A stretch of DNA of 64,000 bases. It comes from an uncultured Pelagibacteraceae bacterium (GTDB lineage: Bacteria; Pseudomonadota; Alphaproteobacteria; Pelagibacterales; Pelagibacteraceae). Within the stretch, counting starts at the first letter, position 1, and each line of letters starts with the position of its first letter. Where the stretch lies: positions 70,526 to 134,525 of the forward strand of contig CACJLJ010000003.1 in NCBI GenBank assembly GCA_902594235.1. The letters run 5' to 3'. The notes under the pieces are model-generated. The model was not told the origin of the DNA and made no database searches. It saw only the letters and a program-made list of their open reading frames with translations. Made by a program: the position numbers and the translations under genes. Shown here piece by piece: positions 11,263 through 19,268 of the stretch.

Positions 11263-11934
11263 TCCAATCAAGTTTTTCAATCCCCTTTTCTTACTATTCT
11301 TCTTTGAAGTAAAAATGCAAGCCTGAGACTTTAAAATTTGTCCATCTTTCAAAATACGTAAATTGTTTGCCTTAAGGGTTTCACCTGTAGAACTAATATC
11401 TGTAATCAATTCAGCTGAACCAGTGAAAGGATATACTTCAGTTGCACCCAAACTATCAATTAATTTGAATTGAGTGACACCTTTTGAAAACAAAAATTCT
11501 CTTGTTAAATTTGGATACTTGGTTGCAACCCTTAATCTTTTTTTCTTTTTATCTTTAAATTCAAATGCAATTTCTTCTAGATCAGCTATTGTTTGAACAT
11601 CAATCCAAGGATCCGGTATAGCTACAACTAGATTAGCTTTTCCAAAATTAAGTTTTTTTATAACATTTATTTTGTTTTGAGTATTTATTTCACTTTCTTT
11701 TAATAGATCAAAACCAGAGAAGCCAACATCTAAAGAGCCATCTCCTAATCTCTCAATAATTTCTCTTGCGTGCAAATATAAAATTTTTATGTTTGATTTA
11801 TTTTTTATTGAGCCTATCAAATCTCTTTCCCCTCGCTCAGAAATAAGCTTTAATCTTTTTTTAGTAAAAATTTTTAAAATATCTTTTCTTAATCGTCCCT
11901 TACTAGGTATTCCTATATTTATTAAATTTTTCAT
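11248..11934 (-). CDS. hisG: ATP phosphoribosyltransferase, short form
   Basis: GIPSKGRL, RVATKYP, GATE, ELITDISSTGETL; lacks the C-terminal regulatory domain and is adjacent to hisZ. Confidence 0.95.
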   Translation of the reverse strand: MKNLINIGIPSKGRLRKDILKIFTKKRLKLISERGERDLIGSIKNKSNIKILYLHAREIIERLGDGSLDVGFSGFDLLKESEINTQNKINVIKKLNFGKANLVVAIPDPWIDVQTIADLEEIAFEFKDKKKKRLRVATKYPNLTREFLFSKGVTQFKLIDSLGATEVYPFTGSAELITDISSTGETLKANNLRILKDGQILKSQACIFTSKKNSKKRGLKNLIGLLSN

Positions 11935-12989
11935 GATCGAGACTTTAAGTTAAGTGCAGCACCAACTGCTGGTACTTGTTTTTTTGAACCAAGATCAGAA
12001 ATTAAATTATCATAACGACCACCATTACAGCAATTAATAATTTTTGACTTAGATTTAATATCAATCTTGAAAACTATACCGGTGTAATATTCTAATTGTC
12101 TTCCAAATGCAGTTGAGAAAACCACATTTAATTTAGATATTTTATTTTTGGAGATAGGAAAATATTTCTGATCAACAAAAAGATTTATTTTATATCTTTT
12201 AAAAAATTTATTTAATTCCTTTGCGGCTTTATTTATTGGACATTTAATTTTCAAAAACTGTTTTATAATTTTTGATGTATTACTTCCTTTGCTTGCCCTT
12301 CTTGGGTCCTTAATTTTTTTATCAAACCTTTCTAAAATTTCTTTTAACGTTCTACCAGCAACAATAGATGATTGATCATCTTCTAACATTTTCAAATATC
12401 TTTTTTTATCAACTTCAACAATGGTTGGGTCTACGTCAGAATTCGTCTCTAATCTTTTTAATAAATCACTGAAATAGTCTTCTCGCCAAAAATGTCTTGT
12501 AAGTCTTAACTTCCATCTTTTTGGAATATCTAATTTAGATATTAAAAGATTAAAAATCTCCACATTGCTAATGGTGAGAGTGCCTGTAGAGTATTTTAGA
12601 TCTTTTATTGATTTAAGTGATGTATTTATTATTTCTTTGTCATCATTTTTTTCATCTTTTGATCCTATAATTTCAAAACCAACTTGATTTTGGATTATAG
12701 AGTTTTTTTTATTTTGAGATTTTCTATAGGCTTGTCCACTATAAAATATTTTTTCTTTACCCTTTAAGTTGTTTTCTAAATATCTAAGACAAGAAGCAAT
12801 AGTAAGATCAGGTCTTAGACATAATTCATTACCTGTCTGGTCAGTAAATGAAAAAATAAATTTTCTAAAACTCTCACCAGATCTTTGAACTATATGATTG
12901 GTTTCAATAACTGAGGGTAGCTCAATATATTTAAATCCTTTAGACTTTACTGATCTTAGGATTTTGTCAGATAAATTTTTTGATTTCAT
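11931..12989 (-). CDS. hisZ: ATP phosphoribosyltransferase regulatory subunit
   Basis: HisRS-like LRPDLT, EYYTGIVF, GGRYD, AVGAAL; lies between hisS and hisG. Confidence 0.88.
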   Translation of the reverse strand: MKSKNLSDKILRSVKSKGFKYIELPSVIETNHIVQRSGESFRKFIFSFTDQTGNELCLRPDLTIASCLRYLENNLKGKEKIFYSGQAYRKSQNKKNSIIQNQVGFEIIGSKDEKNDDKEIINTSLKSIKDLKYSTGTLTISNVEIFNLLISKLDIPKRWKLRLTRHFWREDYFSDLLKRLETNSDVDPTIVEVDKKRYLKMLEDDQSSIVAGRTLKEILERFDKKIKDPRRASKGSNTSKIIKQFLKIKCPINKAAKELNKFFKRYKINLFVDQKYFPISKNKISKLNVVFSTAFGRQLEYYTGIVFKIDIKSKSKIINCCNGGRYDNLISDLGSKKQVPAVGAALNLKSRS

Positions 12990-14364
12990 TAATTAAATTC
13001 TCTTTTGGAAATGTAATTTGGTTATTCTCTCCTTTGGTCCCAAGCAGATTTTTTAATGTAATTTTATTATCTTTGAATTCATTTTCACCACAGATAATTG
13101 CAACAGGACATTCTTTTTTATTTGCATAAGTAAGTTGTTTGCCTAGATTTTTTTTACTATCCAAAAATATTTCAGAATTAATATTATTTTTTCTCAAATT
13201 GTTTAAAATTTCGTAATAATCTTTTAAATATTTTTCATCCATTACACAAACAATAACTGGCTTTTGTACATCAATTTCTAATTGATCTAATTGCATCATT
13301 GCAAATAACAATCTATCAACGCCGATGCTTACACCTGTTCCTGGAATGTCTACGCCTTTAAATCTAGAAATTAATTTATTATACTGGCCACCTGAGCAGA
13401 TACTTCCAATGTCAATTTCCTTACCCTTAATATTTTTTGTTTTAAAATTTAGGTTAGTTTCAACACAAAACCCGTCATAGTAATCTAGGCCTCTGACTAT
13501 GGTAAAATTAGTTTTTACTTGATCAGAATAATTTCCAAAATTTAATACTTCAAATAATTCCTCTAATTCTCTAATCCCCTCTTGAGTAATAGGATTTTTA
13601 AAATTTTGTTTAAGTTCCTTTAAATCTTTAATACTTAAAAAATTTAAGATTTTAAAAGTTTGGTCATCACTTAAATTTGCTCCTTTTGTTATAGCTCCAC
13701 TTTTATCTTTTCTCTCTTTTTTTAATAATTCCTCAACACCCTTTAAACCAAACCCAGGTTTATCAAGTTTATCTATAGCTCTCATGACTTTAATTTGTTT
13801 CTCTTTTTCAATTTTCAAATCTTCAATTAAACCTTGAACAATTTTTCTATTACTTACATTAATAGTAAACTGATCTTTTTTTAGACCACAGTCTAACAAT
13901 GTGTTTGCAATCAAATCACAAAGATCTGCATTTGCTTGTGCAGGATTTACGTTTCCCACAATATCACAATCTGCTTGTGTAAATTCTCTATACCTAGCAT
14001 TTCCAGCCTTTTCATTTCTAAATACGTTTTGGATTGCATATCTTTTATATATTGGTGGAAGCGATTGGTTGTTTTGAGCTACAAATCTAGCCAATGGACT
14101 AGATAAATCGTATCTTAAAGTAATATTTTTTTCTCCGTCACTAAAAGAAAAAACATCAGACATAGGATTACTATCATCCTCTGCAAGAAAGGATCCTATA
14201 TTTTCACTTATTTCAAAAGATGGTGTTTCTAATGGATCAAATCCATATTTGATAAAATTCTTCTCAATAACCTTTAATAGATTTTTTTTGAGAATTAATT
14301 TTTTATTCCATCTATCTTCAAATCCCGCGGGTAATCCAGGAATTAATTTATTTTGTTTGTTCAT
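12967..14364 (-). CDS. hisS: Histidyl-tRNA synthetase (start corrected to 14364)
   Basis: LRYDLSSPLAR, RYREFTQADCD, RGLDYY, GGQY, SIGVDR. The track's start at 14412 lies inside tRNA-His; ATG at 14364 gives MNKQNKLIPGLPAG. Confidence 0.95.
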   Translation of the reverse strand: MNKQNKLIPGLPAGFEDRWNKKLILKKNLLKVIEKNFIKYGFDPLETPSFEISENIGSFLAEDDSNPMSDVFSFSDGEKNITLRYDLSSPLARFVAQNNQSLPPIYKRYAIQNVFRNEKAGNARYREFTQADCDIVGNVNPAQANADLCDLIANTLLDCGLKKDQFTINVSNRKIVQGLIEDLKIEKEKQIKVMRAIDKLDKPGFGLKGVEELLKKERKDKSGAITKGANLSDDQTFKILNFLSIKDLKELKQNFKNPITQEGIRELEELFEVLNFGNYSDQVKTNFTIVRGLDYYDGFCVETNLNFKTKNIKGKEIDIGSICSGGQYNKLISRFKGVDIPGTGVSIGVDRLLFAMMQLDQLEIDVQKPVIVCVMDEKYLKDYYEILNNLRKNNINSEIFLDSKKNLGKQLTYANKKECPVAIICGENEFKDNKITLKNLLGTKGENNQITFPKENLINEIKKFI

Positions 14365-14368
14365 TTTA

Positions 14369-14442
14369 TGGTACCTTGGGTAGGTTCTGCCCCTACGATT
14401 TCGGATCCACAAACCGACGTGATACTATTTCACCACCAAGGC
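14369..14442 (-). tRNA. tRNA-His(GUG), 74 nt, no G-1, non-canonical T-loop
   Basis: Manual fold: GCCTTGG/CCAAGGT acceptor, GTGA/TCAC D-stem, loop TTGTGGA, GTAGG-GGCAGAA-CCTAC T-arm, encoded ACCA. Confidence 0.92.
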
Positions 14443-14503
14443 TCCTTTTAGAGTTATTATCTTATTTTAAGATAGTTTTAAATTATATAATAAATGATAA
14501 ATC

Positions 14504-14549
14504 GCTAGCTTTAGCCAGCATGATAATGATTATGCACAGCTTTAGCTGT
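14504..14549. repeat. Two AGCTTTAGC-centred hairpins/dyads 31 bp apart with a GCAT/ATGC stem between
   Basis: Minus strand: ACAGC-TAAA-GCTGT (14549-14536) and GCTGGC-TAAA-GCTAGC (14519-14504). Confidence 0.6.
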
Positions 14550-14612
14550 TCCTCTAACATATAACTGAAGAGTACAATATTTATATTTTTTATTTATATT
14601 TTTTTTAATCAT
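14511..14612 (-). CDS. Possible 33-aa leader peptide ending HNHYHAG
   Basis: ATG at 14612 to TAA at 14511: MIKKNINKKYKYCTLQLYVRGTAKAVHNHYHAG. No clear SD; could be chance. Confidence 0.25.
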   Translation of the reverse strand: MIKKNINKKYKYCTLQLYVRGTAKAVHNHYHAG

Positions 14613-14652
14613 CAAGAATCTTTTAAACCTAAATTTTTGATATTCAACCCTT

Positions 14653-14694
14653 AAAAAAAGGACACAGGTCTATTTTAATAGATATTGCGCCCTT
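14653..14694 (-). terminator. Intrinsic terminator of cspA
   Basis: AAGGGCGCA...TCTATT/AATAGA...TGTGTCCTT followed by a U-run; the G-U pairs work only on the minus strand. Confidence 0.75.
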
Positions 14695-14710
14695 CTTGTA
14701 ATATTCAAAA

Positions 14711-14923
14711 TTAATCTAATTTTTTTAAATTTACTGCTGAAGGACCTTTTGGACCATCTTCTAATGTAAACTCTAATTTATCTCCTTCATTTAAATATCT
14801 CATACCAGCTGCTTTTACTGCAGACGCGTGTACGAAAGCATCTTTTTCTTTGTCATCCCTTTCGATAAAACCATAACCCTTTTTACCGTTAAACCACTTA
14901 ACTTTACCCTGTATTGTACTCAT
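14711..14923 (-). CDS. cspA: Cold-shock protein
   Basis: [14 protein letters not shown] (RNP1), AFVHASA (RNP2), [10 protein letters not shown]. Confidence 0.93.
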
Positions 14924-15005
14924 CTTGTTTTTTAGTCCTTTTTGTTATTTATTTTTTATTGGAGGTTAAATAGTTTTTTATTAATTTCAAGATGTAATGT
15001 TGTGA

Positions 15006-15080
15006 TGGTGCCTCGGGAAGGATTCGCACCTCCGACACAAGCCTTTTCAGGGCTCTGCTCTACTCCTGAGCTACCGAGGC
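15006..15080 (-). tRNA. tRNA-Phe(GAA), 75 nt, with A18 and G55
   Basis: GCCTCGG/CCGAGGC acceptor, GCTC-AGGAGTA-GAGC D-arm, loop CTGAAAA, GGAGG-TGCGAAT-CCTTC T-arm, ACCA. Confidence 0.95.
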
Positions 15081-15086
15081 AAAATT

Positions 15087-15302
15087 TTATCCTCTAAAGA
15101 TTATTCTGCCTTTTGTTAGGTCATAAGGTGTCATTTCTACCGTCACATTATCACCTTGTAAAACTCGAATTCTATTTTTTCTTAACTTTCCTGCAGTGTG
15201 TGCTGTAACGGTATGACCATTTTCTAGCTCTACCCTAAACATTGCATTTGGTAATAAATCAATTACTTTACCTTTAAACTCAAGTAAATCTTGTTTTGAC
15301 AA
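15087..15302 (-). CDS. infA: Translation initiation factor IF-1
   Basis: [36 protein letters not shown]. Confidence 0.97.
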
Positions 15303-15304
15303 AG

Positions 15305-16588
15305 TTATTTTCTCCTAATTCTTTTTTTTACAGATTGAGCATGTCCTGCTAATCCCTCATAATTTGCAAGAGTTATAACTGATGGTCCAAGACTTTCAAT
15401 ACCCTTTTTTGTTAAATTTACATATGAAATTCTTTTATAAAATTCATTTACACTCACGCCGCTCGAATATCTCGCTGAACCGTTTGTTGGAAGAATATGA
15501 TTTGAACCAATGTTATAATCTGTCATAGCCATAACAGCATATTTGCCAAGACAAATTGAACCTGAATTTCTTATTTTTGAAACAATATTTTTATAATTTT
15601 TTAAATTAAGTTCAAGGTGTTCAGGAGCAATTTTATTTACTACATCTATAATCTTCTTGTCTGAATTAATATACATTAAGATACCATTATTCTTTATACT
15701 TTTTTCTGCAACTGATTTTCTTGGAAGATTAATTAATTGTTTTGAAATTTCAAATTTTATTTTTTTTATCATTTCTTTATTTTTTGAAATAAGAATACAT
15801 TGTGCAAAATTATCATGTTCAGCTTGACCTATTAAGTCACTAGCTAACCACTCTGGGTTAGAAGATTTATCGCATACAATTGTGACCTCGGATGGACCAG
15901 CTATCATGCCCTCTATTCCAACATCACCAAAGACTTCTTTTTTTGCAGCAGTGACATACGCATTTCCTGGGCCAACAATTTTATCAACTTTTTTAATTTT
16001 TTTTGTTCCATATGTTAGAGCTGCAATCGCTGATGCACCTCCTATTGAGTAAATTTCTTTGATTTTACATTTTTTAGCTGCATACAAAACAGCTGGGTTT
16101 TGTTTTCCCTTAAATCCAGGATTTACCATTACTATTCTTTTAACACCTGCAACTAATGCAGGGATTGCATTCATTAATACACTTGATGGGTATGAAATAA
16201 CTGAGCCTGGAACATAAATTGCTGCAGAAGAAATTGGTATATATCTATATTCAAGTTTATTTTTAAAAGAATCATAGTAAGTAATATTTTTAAATTTTTG
16301 CAATGAATGAAATTTCAAAATTCTATTATAAGCTAAATCTATAGCCTTTTTAACTTTACTATCTAACGTATAAATTAATTTAGAAATTTGTCTTTGATTA
16401 GGAATTATTTTGTTATTTTTATTAAATTTTTTTTCATATTTTAGTATTGCATAATCTCCATTCTTTTTTACATCTTTAATTATACTAGATACAGCTACAG
16501 TATTTGATTTTATTTGAATTTTTCTTTTATTCAACATTCTTTCTAGGTCTCGGTCGAACCTTTTATTATTGTAAGATAAAATTTTCAT
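15305..16588 (-). CDS. hisD: Histidinol dehydrogenase
   Basis: [30 protein letters not shown]. Confidence 0.96.
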
Positions 16589-16986
16589 AATTCATTAATT
16601 TCATTTTGATCTTCTAGTCTTACTTCAATAGTTTCGGTAGTCAAAACAATATAAGCATTATCTTTAAAAATAAGATTTATTTCATAATCTCTATTATTTT
16701 TTATTATATCAATGGCAATTAATTCTAGTATTAAATCTTGATTTTTTTGGTCTATATTCTTTGATTTTACTTCATCTATAAAGTCGAATTTACATATACT
16801 TTTAATTTTTTTTTTTACACTCTCGTTCTCTACTTCATTTCTTTCTAATGAAATAAGGAAAATTTTACTTATTTTAAGATATTTTATATTTGATATTTTT
16901 ATTTTAGATCCAGAACAAAATGCGGATATCATTTGTAAACCCTCGATATCTGTTGCTATAATTTTAGCTAAATATTCCTTTGCCAT
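16585..16986 (-). CDS. Conserved alphaproteobacterial protein (DUF2948-like)
   Basis: Position between murA and hisD; C-terminal IEVRLED; the family call is from recognition. Confidence 0.65.
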   Translation of the reverse strand: MAKEYLAKIIATDIEGLQMISAFCSGSKIKISNIKYLKISKIFLISLERNEVENESVKKKIKSICKFDFIDEVKSKNIDQKNQDLILELIAIDIIKNNRDYEINLIFKDNAYIVLTTETIEVRLEDQNEINEL

Positions 16987-18239
16987 TAATTTAGCCTTCT
17001 AATTTTTGCTCCAACTCTTTTTAGTTTTTTTTCAATATCTTCATAACCTCTATCGAGATGATAAATTCTATTAATAACAGACTTTCCTTTTGCACATAAT
17101 GCGGCTAAAATTAAAGAGACTGAGGCTCTTAAATCTGTTGCCATTAATTCAGCAGCTGTGAAATTAGTATTCCCTTGAATATAAGCTTTATTTCCATTAA
17201 TTGAGATTTTCGCACCCATTCTATTTAATTCTGCAACATGCATAAACCTATTTTCAAAAATACTTTCTTTTATGATTGATTTTTTGTTTGCTTTACAAAG
17301 TAACACCATAATTTGAGCCTGTAAGTCAGTAGGAAATCCTGGATATGGAGAAGTTCTAATATTCTTTTTTTTTATTTTTGCTTTTCCATAAATATGAACT
17401 TCATTTTTATATATTCTTATTTTTGATCCAATTTTTTTTAAAATATTTATTTCAGTTTTAATAATATTTGGATCTACATTTTTTAATTTTAAATGGCCTT
17501 CAGTAACCGCAGCCGCTATTAAATAGGTTCCGGCTTCAATTCTGTCAAACATTACTGAATAAGTTATATCTTTTAGATTTTTTACTCCAATAATTTGTAA
17601 AGATCTTTTTGTTAACCAATTAATTTTACAACCCATTTTGTTTAAGAATTTTACTAAATCATCTATTTCAGGTTCAATAGCACAGTTAGAAAGTATTGTC
17701 TTACCTTTTGCAAAACAAGATGCAATAATTAAATTTTCTGTAGCTCCTACAGAAATTTTTGGGAAGCGAATTCTATTTCCTATTAAACCATTAGGAGCTG
17801 TGGCATAAACATAACCCTGCAAAATTTTATATTTTACACCAAGTTTTGAAAGTGCTTTCAAATGTATATCTATAGGTCTTGTCCCTATCGCACAACCACC
17901 AGGTAAAGATACTTTAGCTGAGCCAAATTTAGCTAGCAAAGGGCCCAGGACTAAAATTCCCGCTCTCATAGTTTTTACCAAACTATAAGATGCAAATTTT
18001 TTATTTTGTCTAGAATTATTTATTAAAAGTTTATTTCGCGTATAATTGATTTTTGATCCTAATGAACATAACAAATCAACCATAGTATCAATATCTTTTA
18101 CTTTTGGTAAATTTTTTAAAATTATTTTTTTACTAGATAATAAAGTTGCTGCAAGGATTGGTAATGAGGAATTTTTTGAACCTGATATTCTTATTTGACC
18201 TTTGAGCTTTTTGGCTCCCACAACCTCTAATTTATGCAT
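16986..18239 (-). CDS. murA: UDP-N-acetylglucosamine 1-carboxyvinyltransferase
   Basis: GSKNSSLP, LPGGCAIGTRP (catalytic Cys), PGFPTDLQ, ATDLRA, LDRGY. Confidence 0.97.
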   Translation of the reverse strand: MHKLEVVGAKKLKGQIRISGSKNSSLPILAATLLSSKKIILKNLPKVKDIDTMVDLLCSLGSKINYTRNKLLINNSRQNKKFASYSLVKTMRAGILVLGPLLAKFGSAKVSLPGGCAIGTRPIDIHLKALSKLGVKYKILQGYVYATAPNGLIGNRIRFPKISVGATENLIIASCFAKGKTILSNCAIEPEIDDLVKFLNKMGCKINWLTKRSLQIIGVKNLKDITYSVMFDRIEAGTYLIAAAVTEGHLKLKNVDPNIIKTEINILKKIGSKIRIYKNEVHIYGKAKIKKKNIRTSPYPGFPTDLQAQIMVLLCKANKKSIIKESIFENRFMHVAELNRMGAKISINGNKAYIQGNTNFTAAELMATDLRASVSLILAALCAKGKSVINRIYHLDRGYEDIEKKLKRVGAKIRRLN

Positions 18240-18241
18240 AA

Positions 18242-18796
18242 TTAAACTTTTGGTAAAGTTACCCCAGTCTGGCCCATATATTTGCCTTTTCGATCTGCAT
18301 AAGTAACCTCTGGCCTCTCATTTCCTTTAAGAAAAATAAATTGAGCCACTCCTTCATTTGCATAAATTTTTGCTGGTAATGGTGTGGTGTTTGAAAATTC
18401 AAGTGTAACGTATCCTTCCCATCCAGGTTCTAACGGAGTAACGTTAACAATTATACCACATCTGGCATAAGTAGATTTACCAAGACAGATTACTAAAACA
18501 TCATTAGGAATTTTAAATTTTTCTACAGTTCTTGCTAAAACAAAGGAATTGGGTGGAATAATACATTCAGATCCATTTTTTGTTACGAAATTTGTTGGTT
18601 TAAAGTTTTTTGGATCAACTATTTCTGAATTAACATTTGTAAATATCTTAAACTCATTAGAAACTCTTGCATCATAACCATAAGATGAAAGTCCATAAGA
18701 AATACTATCTCCTCTAATTTGTTTTTCCTCAAACGGAGAAATCATACTGTTTTCTTTTGACATTGTTCTTATCCACTTATCTGAAAGAACCGACAT
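18242..18796 (-). CDS. dcd: dCTP deaminase
   Basis: [27 protein letters not shown]. Confidence 0.95.
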
Positions 18797-18897
18797 TATC
18801 TATTTTTCTTCTTATATTTTTTTTGAAATAATTTTCTTTTTTTCAAATTTTTTTTTAATGCAGAACTTAATCTCTCATTTTTATCTTGTTTAATCAT
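18796..18897 (-). CDS. 33-aa basic small protein (not in ORF track)
   Basis: [33 protein letters not shown]; ATGA overlap with the upstream ORF and TAATG overlap with dcd. Confidence 0.75.
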
Positions 18898-19094
18898 TCT
18901 TTATTAGGATTTGTAAGAAAATCTAAAGTGATAGGTTTTGATGTATCTAAAGTTTTAGTTTTTAAATCATCTTTTTTTGGGCCCTCTTTTGCAAGTCTTT
19001 TTGCTTTTTTCTCAGCAAGCTTTCTTTCCCTTTTTGCCTGCTTCTCCATTAACTTGGCGCTTTTTGTCGATTTATAATCGTAATGAATACCCAT
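18894..19094 (-). CDS. 66-aa Lys-rich hypothetical protein
   Basis: First gene of the dcd-murA-hisD run; charged helical stretch; ATGA-coupled to the next ORF. Confidence 0.65.
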   Translation of the reverse strand: MGIHYDYKSTKSAKLMEKQAKRERKLAEKKAKRLAKEGPKKDDLKTKTLDTSKPITLDFLTNPNKE

Positions 19095-19194
19095 AAAATT
19101 TCCTTCACAAGATATAAATCATATTCATCAAAAAATTAAGGCAATAATTTGAAAAAAATGCTTTATTATCAATAAAATACAATTTTTGATATTT

Positions 19195-19268
19195 GCTCCT
19201 GTAGTTAAATGGCATAACAAGTCCTTGGTAAGGACTAGTTCCCTGGTCAGTACAGGGTGGGAGCACCA
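19195..19268 (+). tRNA. tRNA-Thr(GGU), 74 nt, non-canonical T-loop
   Basis: GCTCCTG/TGGGAGC acceptor, GTTA-AATGGCA-TAAC D-arm, AGTCC-TTGGTAA-GGACT, CCCTG-GTCAGTA-CAGGG T-arm, ACCA. Confidence 0.9.

Follow-up and report, generated by a model that had tools for sequence, protein, structure and literature searches.

Can a transfer RNA (tRNA) keep its fold when both U54 and A58 of its T-loop have been replaced? These two nucleotides count as invariant supports of the tRNA fold and are also substrates or recognition elements of TrmA/TrmFO, TruB and TrmI. The question is raised by two genes, tRNA-His(GUG) and tRNA-Thr(GGU), in a 64,000-nucleotide stretch of a Pelagibacter (SAR11) genome. This stretch, referred to here as the window, corresponds to G000:C3:70526-134525 within a 1.19-Mb genome of 28% GC, and positions below are counted from its first letter. 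A preliminary description of the DNA had read the two T-loops as GGCAGAA (His) and GUCAGUA (Thr) within perfect 5-bp stems, with G54, C56, A57, G58 and A60 in common, and direct reading of the sequence bears this out. The loops represent a real, functional-looking and recurrent variant of the tRNA T-loop. We consider it probable, at about three chances in four, that both genes encode working elongator tRNAs, sole decoders in which a G54·G58 trans Watson-Crick/Hoogsteen pair together with A60 replaces U54·A58 and the pyrimidine at position 60. If so, essential sole-copy tRNAs of a very abundant bacterium dispense with U54 and A58. The two genes and their relevant parts are as follows.

14369-14442, minus strand: tRNA-His(GUG), the sole His tRNA gene, identified by Rfam RF00005 and a cloverleaf parse
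14380-14396, minus strand: T arm of tRNA-His, GUAGG-GGCAGAA-CCUAC, with the loop at 14385-14391
14423-14429, minus strand: D-loop of tRNA-His, AAUAGUA, with A18 G19 against the canonical G18 G19
19195-19268, plus strand: tRNA-Thr(GGU), the only gene with a GGU anticodon, identified by ARAGORN and Rfam
19241-19257, plus strand: T arm of tRNA-Thr, CCCUG-GUCAGUA-CAGGG, with the loop at 19246-19252

Read in cloverleaf segments, tRNA-His is GCCUUGG UG GUGA AAUAGUA UCAC G UCGGU UUGUGGA UCCGA AAUC GUAGG GGCAGAA CCUAC CCAAGGU A CCA and tRNA-Thr is GCUCCUG UA GUUA AAUGGCA UAAC A AGUCC UUGGUAA GGACU AGUU CCCUG GUCAGUA CAGGG UGGGAGC A CCA. Both share with the canonical bacterial class I elongator tRNA the cloverleaf, a 7-bp acceptor stem, D and anticodon stems, U33, a sense anticodon, a 5-bp T stem closed by G53-C61, a 7-nucleotide T-loop, G19 with C56, a purine at position 57 and an encoded CCA. 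Minimum-free-energy folding returns the cloverleaf for tRNA-His and, for tRNA-Thr, the expected acceptor, anticodon and T arms. Both genes differ from the consensus loop U54-U55-C56-R57-A58-N-Y60 (T54-Psi55-C56-R57-A58-N59-Y60 when modified) in having G54, G58 and A60. Of the consensus, C56 and R57 are kept in both tRNAs and U55 in tRNA-Thr only. The tRNA-His loop reads G54 G55 C56 A57 G58 A59 A60, and this tRNA therefore carries both A18/G55 and G54/G58/A60, while tRNA-Thr, with D-loop AAUGGCA, combines G54/G58/A60 with G18, G19 and U55. The modifications m5U54 and m1A58 are impossible on both tRNAs, and Psi55 is impossible on tRNA-His. Both loops belong to an alternative class, G54-N-C56-R57-G58-N-A60, that we define here by G54, G58 and A60 occurring together on a stem closed by G53-C61, with C56 or another base that complements position 19.

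A covariance-model search of the whole genome identified one His(GUG) and one Thr(GGU) gene and no second copy of either, which, for this assembly, answers the earlier question of whether these are the only genes for their anticodons. ARAGORN called 31 tRNAs in the whole genome, and tRNA-His, seen by the covariance model only, brings the set to 32. Within the window ARAGORN called tRNA-Phe(GAA), tRNA-Thr(GGU) and tRNA-Ser(GGA) and missed tRNA-His. The RF00005 match for tRNA-His spans 14372-14442 on the minus strand with anticodon GUG. At 47.0 bits for this gene and 45.5 bits for tRNA-Thr, with model positions 1-71 covered in each case and a gathering score of 29, the two rank lowest among the 32 tRNAs. 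The preliminary description had anticipated that such tRNAs would be missed or scored low by tRNA finders, and the result for ARAGORN exposes a blind spot that includes the only tRNA-His of the genome as well as several phage tRNAs discussed below. It had also regarded the genes as functional rather than decayed, and this agrees with their intact stems, encoded CCA and single-copy status.

It is hardly credible that the two genes are pseudogenes or products of sequencing or assembly errors, with the working genes located elsewhere. With 96.6% completeness over 12 contigs the assembly could formally lack a gene, and four RNA libraries yielded no tRNA-His of the GGCAGAA type. However, the whole-genome search gave a single gene for each of the two anticodons, neither gene has a broken stem or lacks its CCA, the identical His allele is found in an independent single-cell genome, and the Thr allele is present in 115 further genomes, of which many are closed. 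Chance is excluded because the 28 tRNAs of this genome with ordinary loops all have UUCRANY, the His allele recurs in that single-cell genome, and the Thr loop occurs in 115 genomes against 2 matches of a control pattern.

Noncanonical T-loops were found in four of the 32 tRNAs. In addition to tRNA-His and tRNA-Thr(GGU), these are the following two, the first of which lies in the same cluster and serves as a contrast case.

15006-15080, minus strand: tRNA-Phe(GAA), A18/G55 with D-loop AGGAGUA and T-loop UGCGAAU, and canonical U54/A58/U60
G000:C1:195179-195253, outside the window: tRNA-Val(GAC), D-loop AAUAGUA and T-loop AGCGUAA

G19 and C56 are kept in all four. A18 accompanies G55 in tRNA-His, tRNA-Phe and tRNA-Val(GAC), and the 54/58 pair is G/G in tRNA-His and tRNA-Thr and A/U in tRNA-Val. 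The two kinds of exchange are separable, since tRNA-Thr has the 54/58 exchange alone, tRNA-Phe the 18/55 exchange alone and tRNA-His both. Throughout the 32 tRNAs a purine at position 54 occurs with A60 and U54 occurs with a pyrimidine at position 60. The proposal that G54/G58 is a second, independent compensated redesign thus gains from this separability, as it does from perfect covariation in phage tRNAs. The loop of tRNA-Val(GAC), with A18/G55 and A54/U58/A60, is also the tRNA-His loop of 57 of 80 relatives. Elsewhere, at G000:C1:198144-198230 and so outside the window, a tRNA-like sequence scored a weak 20.5 bits, short of the threshold.

We scanned IMG/VR, whose contigs are predicted viruses, for exact copies of both 17-nucleotide T arms. 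The Thr arm was detected in phage tRNA-Thr(GGU), tRNA-Thr(CGU) and tRNA-Ile(GAU), and the His arm in phage tRNAs with anticodons GUU (Asn) and CAU and in a class II phage tRNA that we read manually as Ser(UGA). These tRNAs lie within arrays of up to 27 tRNAs, and the GC content of the arm-bearing loci is 32-63%. ARAGORN misses the phage tRNAs of the GGCAGAA type and the Ile tRNAs. A degenerate viral scan with the pattern TGGTAAN{13,14}GGTCAGTAC gave 112 matches, most of them non-tRNA and mostly coding-like, of which we retained just those that combine a paired T stem with a complete cloverleaf; it added phage tRNA-Thr(GGU) with GUCAGUA on six further stems. In the resulting set of 107 unique, well-formed phage tRNAs, positions 54/58/60 are U/A/Y in 84, G/G/A in 15, A/U/R in 6, A/A/A in 1 and C/A/U in 1. 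Every G54 (15/15) is accompanied by G58 and A60, U54 never is, and a purine at position 54 never occurs without a purine at position 60. Seven different G54 loops are present (GUCAGUA, GGCAGAA, GGCAGCA, GCCAGCA, GGCGGUA, GGCGGAA and GGAGGUA), borne by tRNAs of at least eight different anticodons. These findings describe a strict three-position rule, a purine at position 54 with a matching nucleotide at position 58 and a purine at position 60. A link of the odd T-loops to G34, which all four odd tRNAs of the genome possess, was considered and dropped, as the anticodons of the G-type phage tRNAs include CCA, UUU, CGU, CAU and, by manual reading, UGA.

In the arrangement that we propose, G54 and G58 would form a purine-purine pair that stacks on G53-C61 in place of the U54·A58 reverse-Hoogsteen pair, and A60 would replace the usual pyrimidine as the obligatory partner of a purine at position 54. 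This design appears to combine freely with the 18/55 exchange, giving A18·G55 in tRNA-His and G18·U55 in tRNA-Thr. The L-shape and the flat elbow surface read by RNase P, the L1 stalk and others should be preserved because G19-C56 and R57 are unchanged. Eukaryotic initiator tRNA-Met also has A60. Its A54 pairs with m1A58, so it resembles the tRNAs described here in joining a purine 54 to a purine 58 and in following the same relation between positions 54 and 60. Unlike them, it uses an A·A pair with m1A58 and is initiator-specific and eukaryotic, whereas the G·G combination occurs in bacterial and phage elongators.

The preliminary description had left the choice between a G54-G58 and a G54-A60 pair. 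Precedents in other RNAs favor the former over the latter, and it is from these, together with the covariation, that we infer a trans Watson-Crick/Hoogsteen geometry. In the ATP aptamer a G:G pair of this kind (trans WC:HG) takes the place of U:A, and G:G makes up 1% of UA_handle pairs (PMC2615604). Eukaryotic initiator tRNA provides a longer purine-purine pair of Hoogsteen type, A54-A58 (PMC7912444). The UA_handle and T-loop variants of rRNA and of the ATP aptamer (Jaeger et al. 2009, PMC2615604) are alike in having G:G for U:A at the closing noncanonical pair and differ in that none is a tRNA T-loop docking a D-loop. Riboswitch T-loops, on the other hand, strongly require a Y-A pair (bioRxiv 10.1101/2022.12.26.521914).

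To follow the loops in relatives, we used 80 Pelagibacter loci anchored on hisS (83-93% protein identity) and parsed with our own permissive cloverleaf script; a BLAST search of the 77-nucleotide tRNA-His against 60 relatives gave only 10 matches and was too insensitive. For tRNA-His, AGCGUAA with an A18 D-loop is the most frequent form (57/80), followed by the canonical loop (22/80), and GGCAGAA was found once (1/80). The GGCAGAA allele recurs letter for letter in L052, the independent single-cell genome AG-453-D07, and with the study genome included this loop is present in two of 91 loci. It differs from the AGCGUAA allele at four positions (54, 57, 58 and one variable-loop position), and no intermediates between the two were found among the 91 loci. 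The AGCGUAA elbow of SAR11 tRNA-Val(GAC) and tRNA-His belongs to the same lineage, has a purine at position 54, A60 and A18/G55, also occurs in phage tRNAs and shares the tRNA-His locus, but has A/U rather than G/G at 54/58 and G rather than A at position 57.

The Thr loop is far more widespread. Among 67 tRNA-Thr(GGU) genes of relatives, 26 have CCCUG-GUCAGUA-CAGGG, 37 have a canonical loop and also differ in the anticodon stem, two are of an A18/G55 type and two combine a UUAGAUU T-loop with the D-loop UAGUGUUA. When 401 genomes of the order, each at least 80% complete, were scanned for the pattern, the GUCAGUA loop of tRNA-Thr(GGU) was detected in 110 of 297 genomes of the genus (37% of sampled species), in 5 of 23 from one genus of a second family, and in none of 75 genomes of seven other genera in the same family as Pelagibacter. 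No match was obtained in 150 other alphaproteobacterial families, and a reversed control pattern matched 2 of the 401 genomes. Conservation in relatives, on which the preliminary description had made its case depend, therefore holds for tRNA-Thr and fails for the rare loop of tRNA-His. Nor do the two genes share one origin, as the earlier pairing of them might suggest; they are unrelated alleles of one structural class. The structural inference of the preliminary description largely holds up; the recombining alleles, the spread of the class through phage tRNA arrays and the lack of TruB, TrmA and TrmFO in the lineage lay beyond it. In six divergent carriers of GUCAGUA the T stems are ACCUG/CAGGU, GCCCG/CGGGC, GCCUG/CAGGC, CCAUG/CAUGG and UCCUG/CAGGG, alongside CCCUG/CAGGG, and the loop is unchanged. 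A loop that stays fixed across divergent tRNA-Thr bodies while the stems covary points to selection on the loop itself.

Two further kinds of tRNA-Thr(GGU) allele occur in these relatives. The A18/G55 alleles (L033:2097(-) and L035:2033(-)) have UGCAAGU with D-loop AGGGAGUA or AGGUAGUA. The UUAGAUU alleles (L081:2118(-) and L091:2119(-)), judging from their D-loop, suggest a U19-A56 swap.

What may have made such loops acceptable is the modification machinery of the lineage. TruB, TrmFO and TrmA had no match in the study genome. TruB was found in none of 88 genomes of the genus at 90% completeness or more, many of them closed; it is present in 11/11 genomes of three sister genera and in 12/13 of the second family. 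The truB gene, which relatives place between rbfA and rpsO, has been cleanly excised from the infB-rbfA-truB-rpsO-pnp order, leaving an rbfA-rpsO gap of about 40 bp (G000:C3:174866-175506, outside the window). Among 121 genomes no TrmFO match passed the cut-off of 428, all matches being MnmG-sized at about 55 bits, and TrmA (PF05958) gave partial matches only, in three of the 121. With no TrmA or TrmFO found in the sampled order and no TruB in the genus, m5U54 is probably absent throughout the former and Psi55 from the latter. In such a permissive lineage U54 and U55 would not be needed as enzyme substrates. This link from enzyme loss to T-loop remodeling is suggestive and should not be taken as causal. 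A genus with neither TruB nor an m5U54 enzyme nevertheless offers natural material for asking what T-loop modifications are for.

The same enzyme losses could be read as a license for decay: after loss of TrmA, TrmFO and TruB the T-loops would have drifted, with no true T-loop fold, a looser elbow and sub-optimal tRNAs, as in animal mitochondria. The absence of the three enzymes, the odd loops in four of 32 tRNAs and an AT-rich, streamlined genome of 28% GC are consistent with this, but the changes are nonrandom. G54, G58 and A60 strictly covary, C56-G19 and R57 are kept, GUCAGUA is invariant as its stems covary, and GC-rich phages and a TruB-positive genome also have these loops. We consider tolerated decay very unlikely.

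Several observations weigh against working tRNAs built on a G54·G58 pair with A60. The tRNA-His locus does appear in RNA libraries, with the allele of the relatives: in four marine metatranscriptomes, contigs of this locus carry A54 and a variable-loop G, the common allele, and not GGCAGAA. The G·G geometry draws on covariation and on precedent in other RNAs, and the role of A60 and a causal tie to enzyme loss are likewise our interpretation. The two-way counts in the 107 phage tRNAs (G54 against G58, 15/0/0/92; purine 54 against purine 60, 22/0/0/85) come from contigs picked for holding a G-type arm and include many related tRNAs, so that Fisher values overstate independence. The G/G/A combination was found in just 2 of 94 phage tRNAs that were not search targets. 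The cloverleaf parser was self-made and permissive, and IMG/VR contigs are predicted rather than proven viruses. Enzyme loss is no prerequisite either, since the TruB-positive genome G042 has the GUCAGUA allele of tRNA-Thr, the TruB-positive genus g5 has an A18/G55 tRNA-His, and in the TruB-less genus g8 the G-type Thr allele is present in 0/43. On these three cases, loss of truB as a necessary cause of the remodeling was rejected. The GGCAGAA allele of tRNA-His and the GUCAGUA allele of tRNA-Thr would still be expected to be expressed and charged, and their being the sole copies for their anticodons argues for function. The sequence of tRNA-Phe was matched exactly in a metatranscriptome contig.

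The distribution of alleles does not follow descent. Mapped onto a tree of hisS from 81 loci, tRNA-His switches class 11 or more times and tRNA-Thr 15 or more, in some cases between sisters with almost identical hisS, and the study genome and L052, which both have the GGCAGAA allele, are not sisters. Differences between alleles extend over many positions of the tRNA body, which argues that the switches represent replacement by recombination rather than point mutation. Canonical and remodeled alleles of tRNA-His, tRNA-Thr(GGU) and tRNA-Phe thus belong to a long-lived polymorphism, in which homologous recombination exchanges one for another between Pelagibacter species. That both kinds coexist and recombine in natural populations, and that phage arrays contain these designs too, gives the system an interest beyond the two genes. 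The neighbors of tRNA-His bear on where the exchanges begin.

12967-14364, minus strand: hisS, histidyl-tRNA synthetase (Pfam PF13393 and PF03129), starting 4 nucleotides past the tRNA-His CCA
11931-12989: hisZ, after hisS

The tRNA-His gene ends 4 nucleotides before the start of hisS (14364-14372), yet its alleles vary next to near-identical hisS genes, and the breakpoints would therefore lie right at the junction. Prophage integration as a source of the Thr T arm was rejected, as neighbor spacing is the same in carriers and non-carriers and the anticodon stem also differs.

Another possibility is that the remodeled alleles (G54·G58/A60, A54·U58/R60 and A18·G55) came from phages or are exchanged with them, forming a pool common to phages and small-genome cells that is upheld by conflict. 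An arms race would keep them because they evade a T-loop-directed nuclease or toxin or a dependence on host modification, with frequency-dependent selection in SAR11. Were this true, such elbows would keep phage tRNAs working where canonical ones are disabled by a T-loop-directed nuclease of the host or of a rival, or because the host has lost its modification enzymes. Exact 17-nucleotide T arms indeed recur in phage tRNAs with different identities, odd alleles are found side by side with canonical ones and have been shuffled, and about 10% of the non-target tRNAs in phage arrays have a noncanonical 54/58 pair. A tRNA-Thr(GGU) on a viral contig, L100:12331-12404(-), differs at only 2 of 74 positions from a Pelagibacter allele (L268, G192:C1), and this near-identity hints at recent exchange between phages and SAR11; the fetched L100 locus has 49% GC, and attempts to assign its contig to a known phage gave no result. 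On the other side, no T-loop-targeting nuclease or toxin was identified here, shared arms could arise by convergent constraint, and the phage contigs, at 34-66% GC overall, include none tied to SAR11. A BLAST search with both tRNAs in 50,697 records of cultured phages returned no G-type tRNA; there was no match for tRNA-His, and the four for tRNA-Thr are Rhizobium phage tRNA-Thr(UGU) genes with a canonical UUCGAUU loop. An origin or maintenance of the alleles through conflict with phages thus seems unlikely to us, and a structural rule that keeps working tRNAs functional is the reading that we prefer.

One layer of peculiarity in SAR11 tRNA-His is already known and concerns the acceptor end (PMC3937112). 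The acceptor stem of the gene studied here, GCCUUGG/CCAAGGU, has G1·U72, followed by A73 and the encoded CCA, and position -1 is A, with no G-1. These traits and the position next to hisS agree with the tRNA-His of the RRCH clade and SAR11, for which a derived identity set with A73 and without G-1 has been described (Wang et al. 2007; Ardell & Andersson 2006; both as cited in PMC3937112). That literature deals with the acceptor end and HisRS, and PMC3937112 is silent on the T-loop and on positions 54/55. By sequence, remodeling of the elbow is a layer separate from the acceptor-end traits and varies among SAR11 species. A full-text literature search, with most subscription journals outside its reach, returned no paper on G54-G58 or A54-U58 tRNAs or on loss of truB in SAR11.

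Phage arrays hold further departures from the canonical elbow. The IMG/VR loci L092-L121 (for example L098, L101 and L115) include tRNAs with U19-A56 (UUAGACU with AAUGUUA) and A19-U56 (UUUGACU with AACGACA), as well as A54/U58, A54/A58 and C54/A58 combinations, and ARAGORN skips several of these.

The tRNA-Phe slot is variable in its own way. In the 80 relatives the UGCGAAU loop was found in 72 and another G55 loop, UGCGAUU, in two. In L002:2130-2202(-), L009:881-953(+), L013, L052, L064 and L066 the slot is occupied by a quite different tRNA(GAA) gene, with an acceptor beginning GGGUCUC or GGGACYG and D-loop AGCUGGUGC or AAGUGGUCU, some without an encoded CCA. The tRNA(GAA) genes of L002 and L009 have T-loop UUCGUUU, that is, U58. 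This looks like replacement of the resident gene by a foreign allele.

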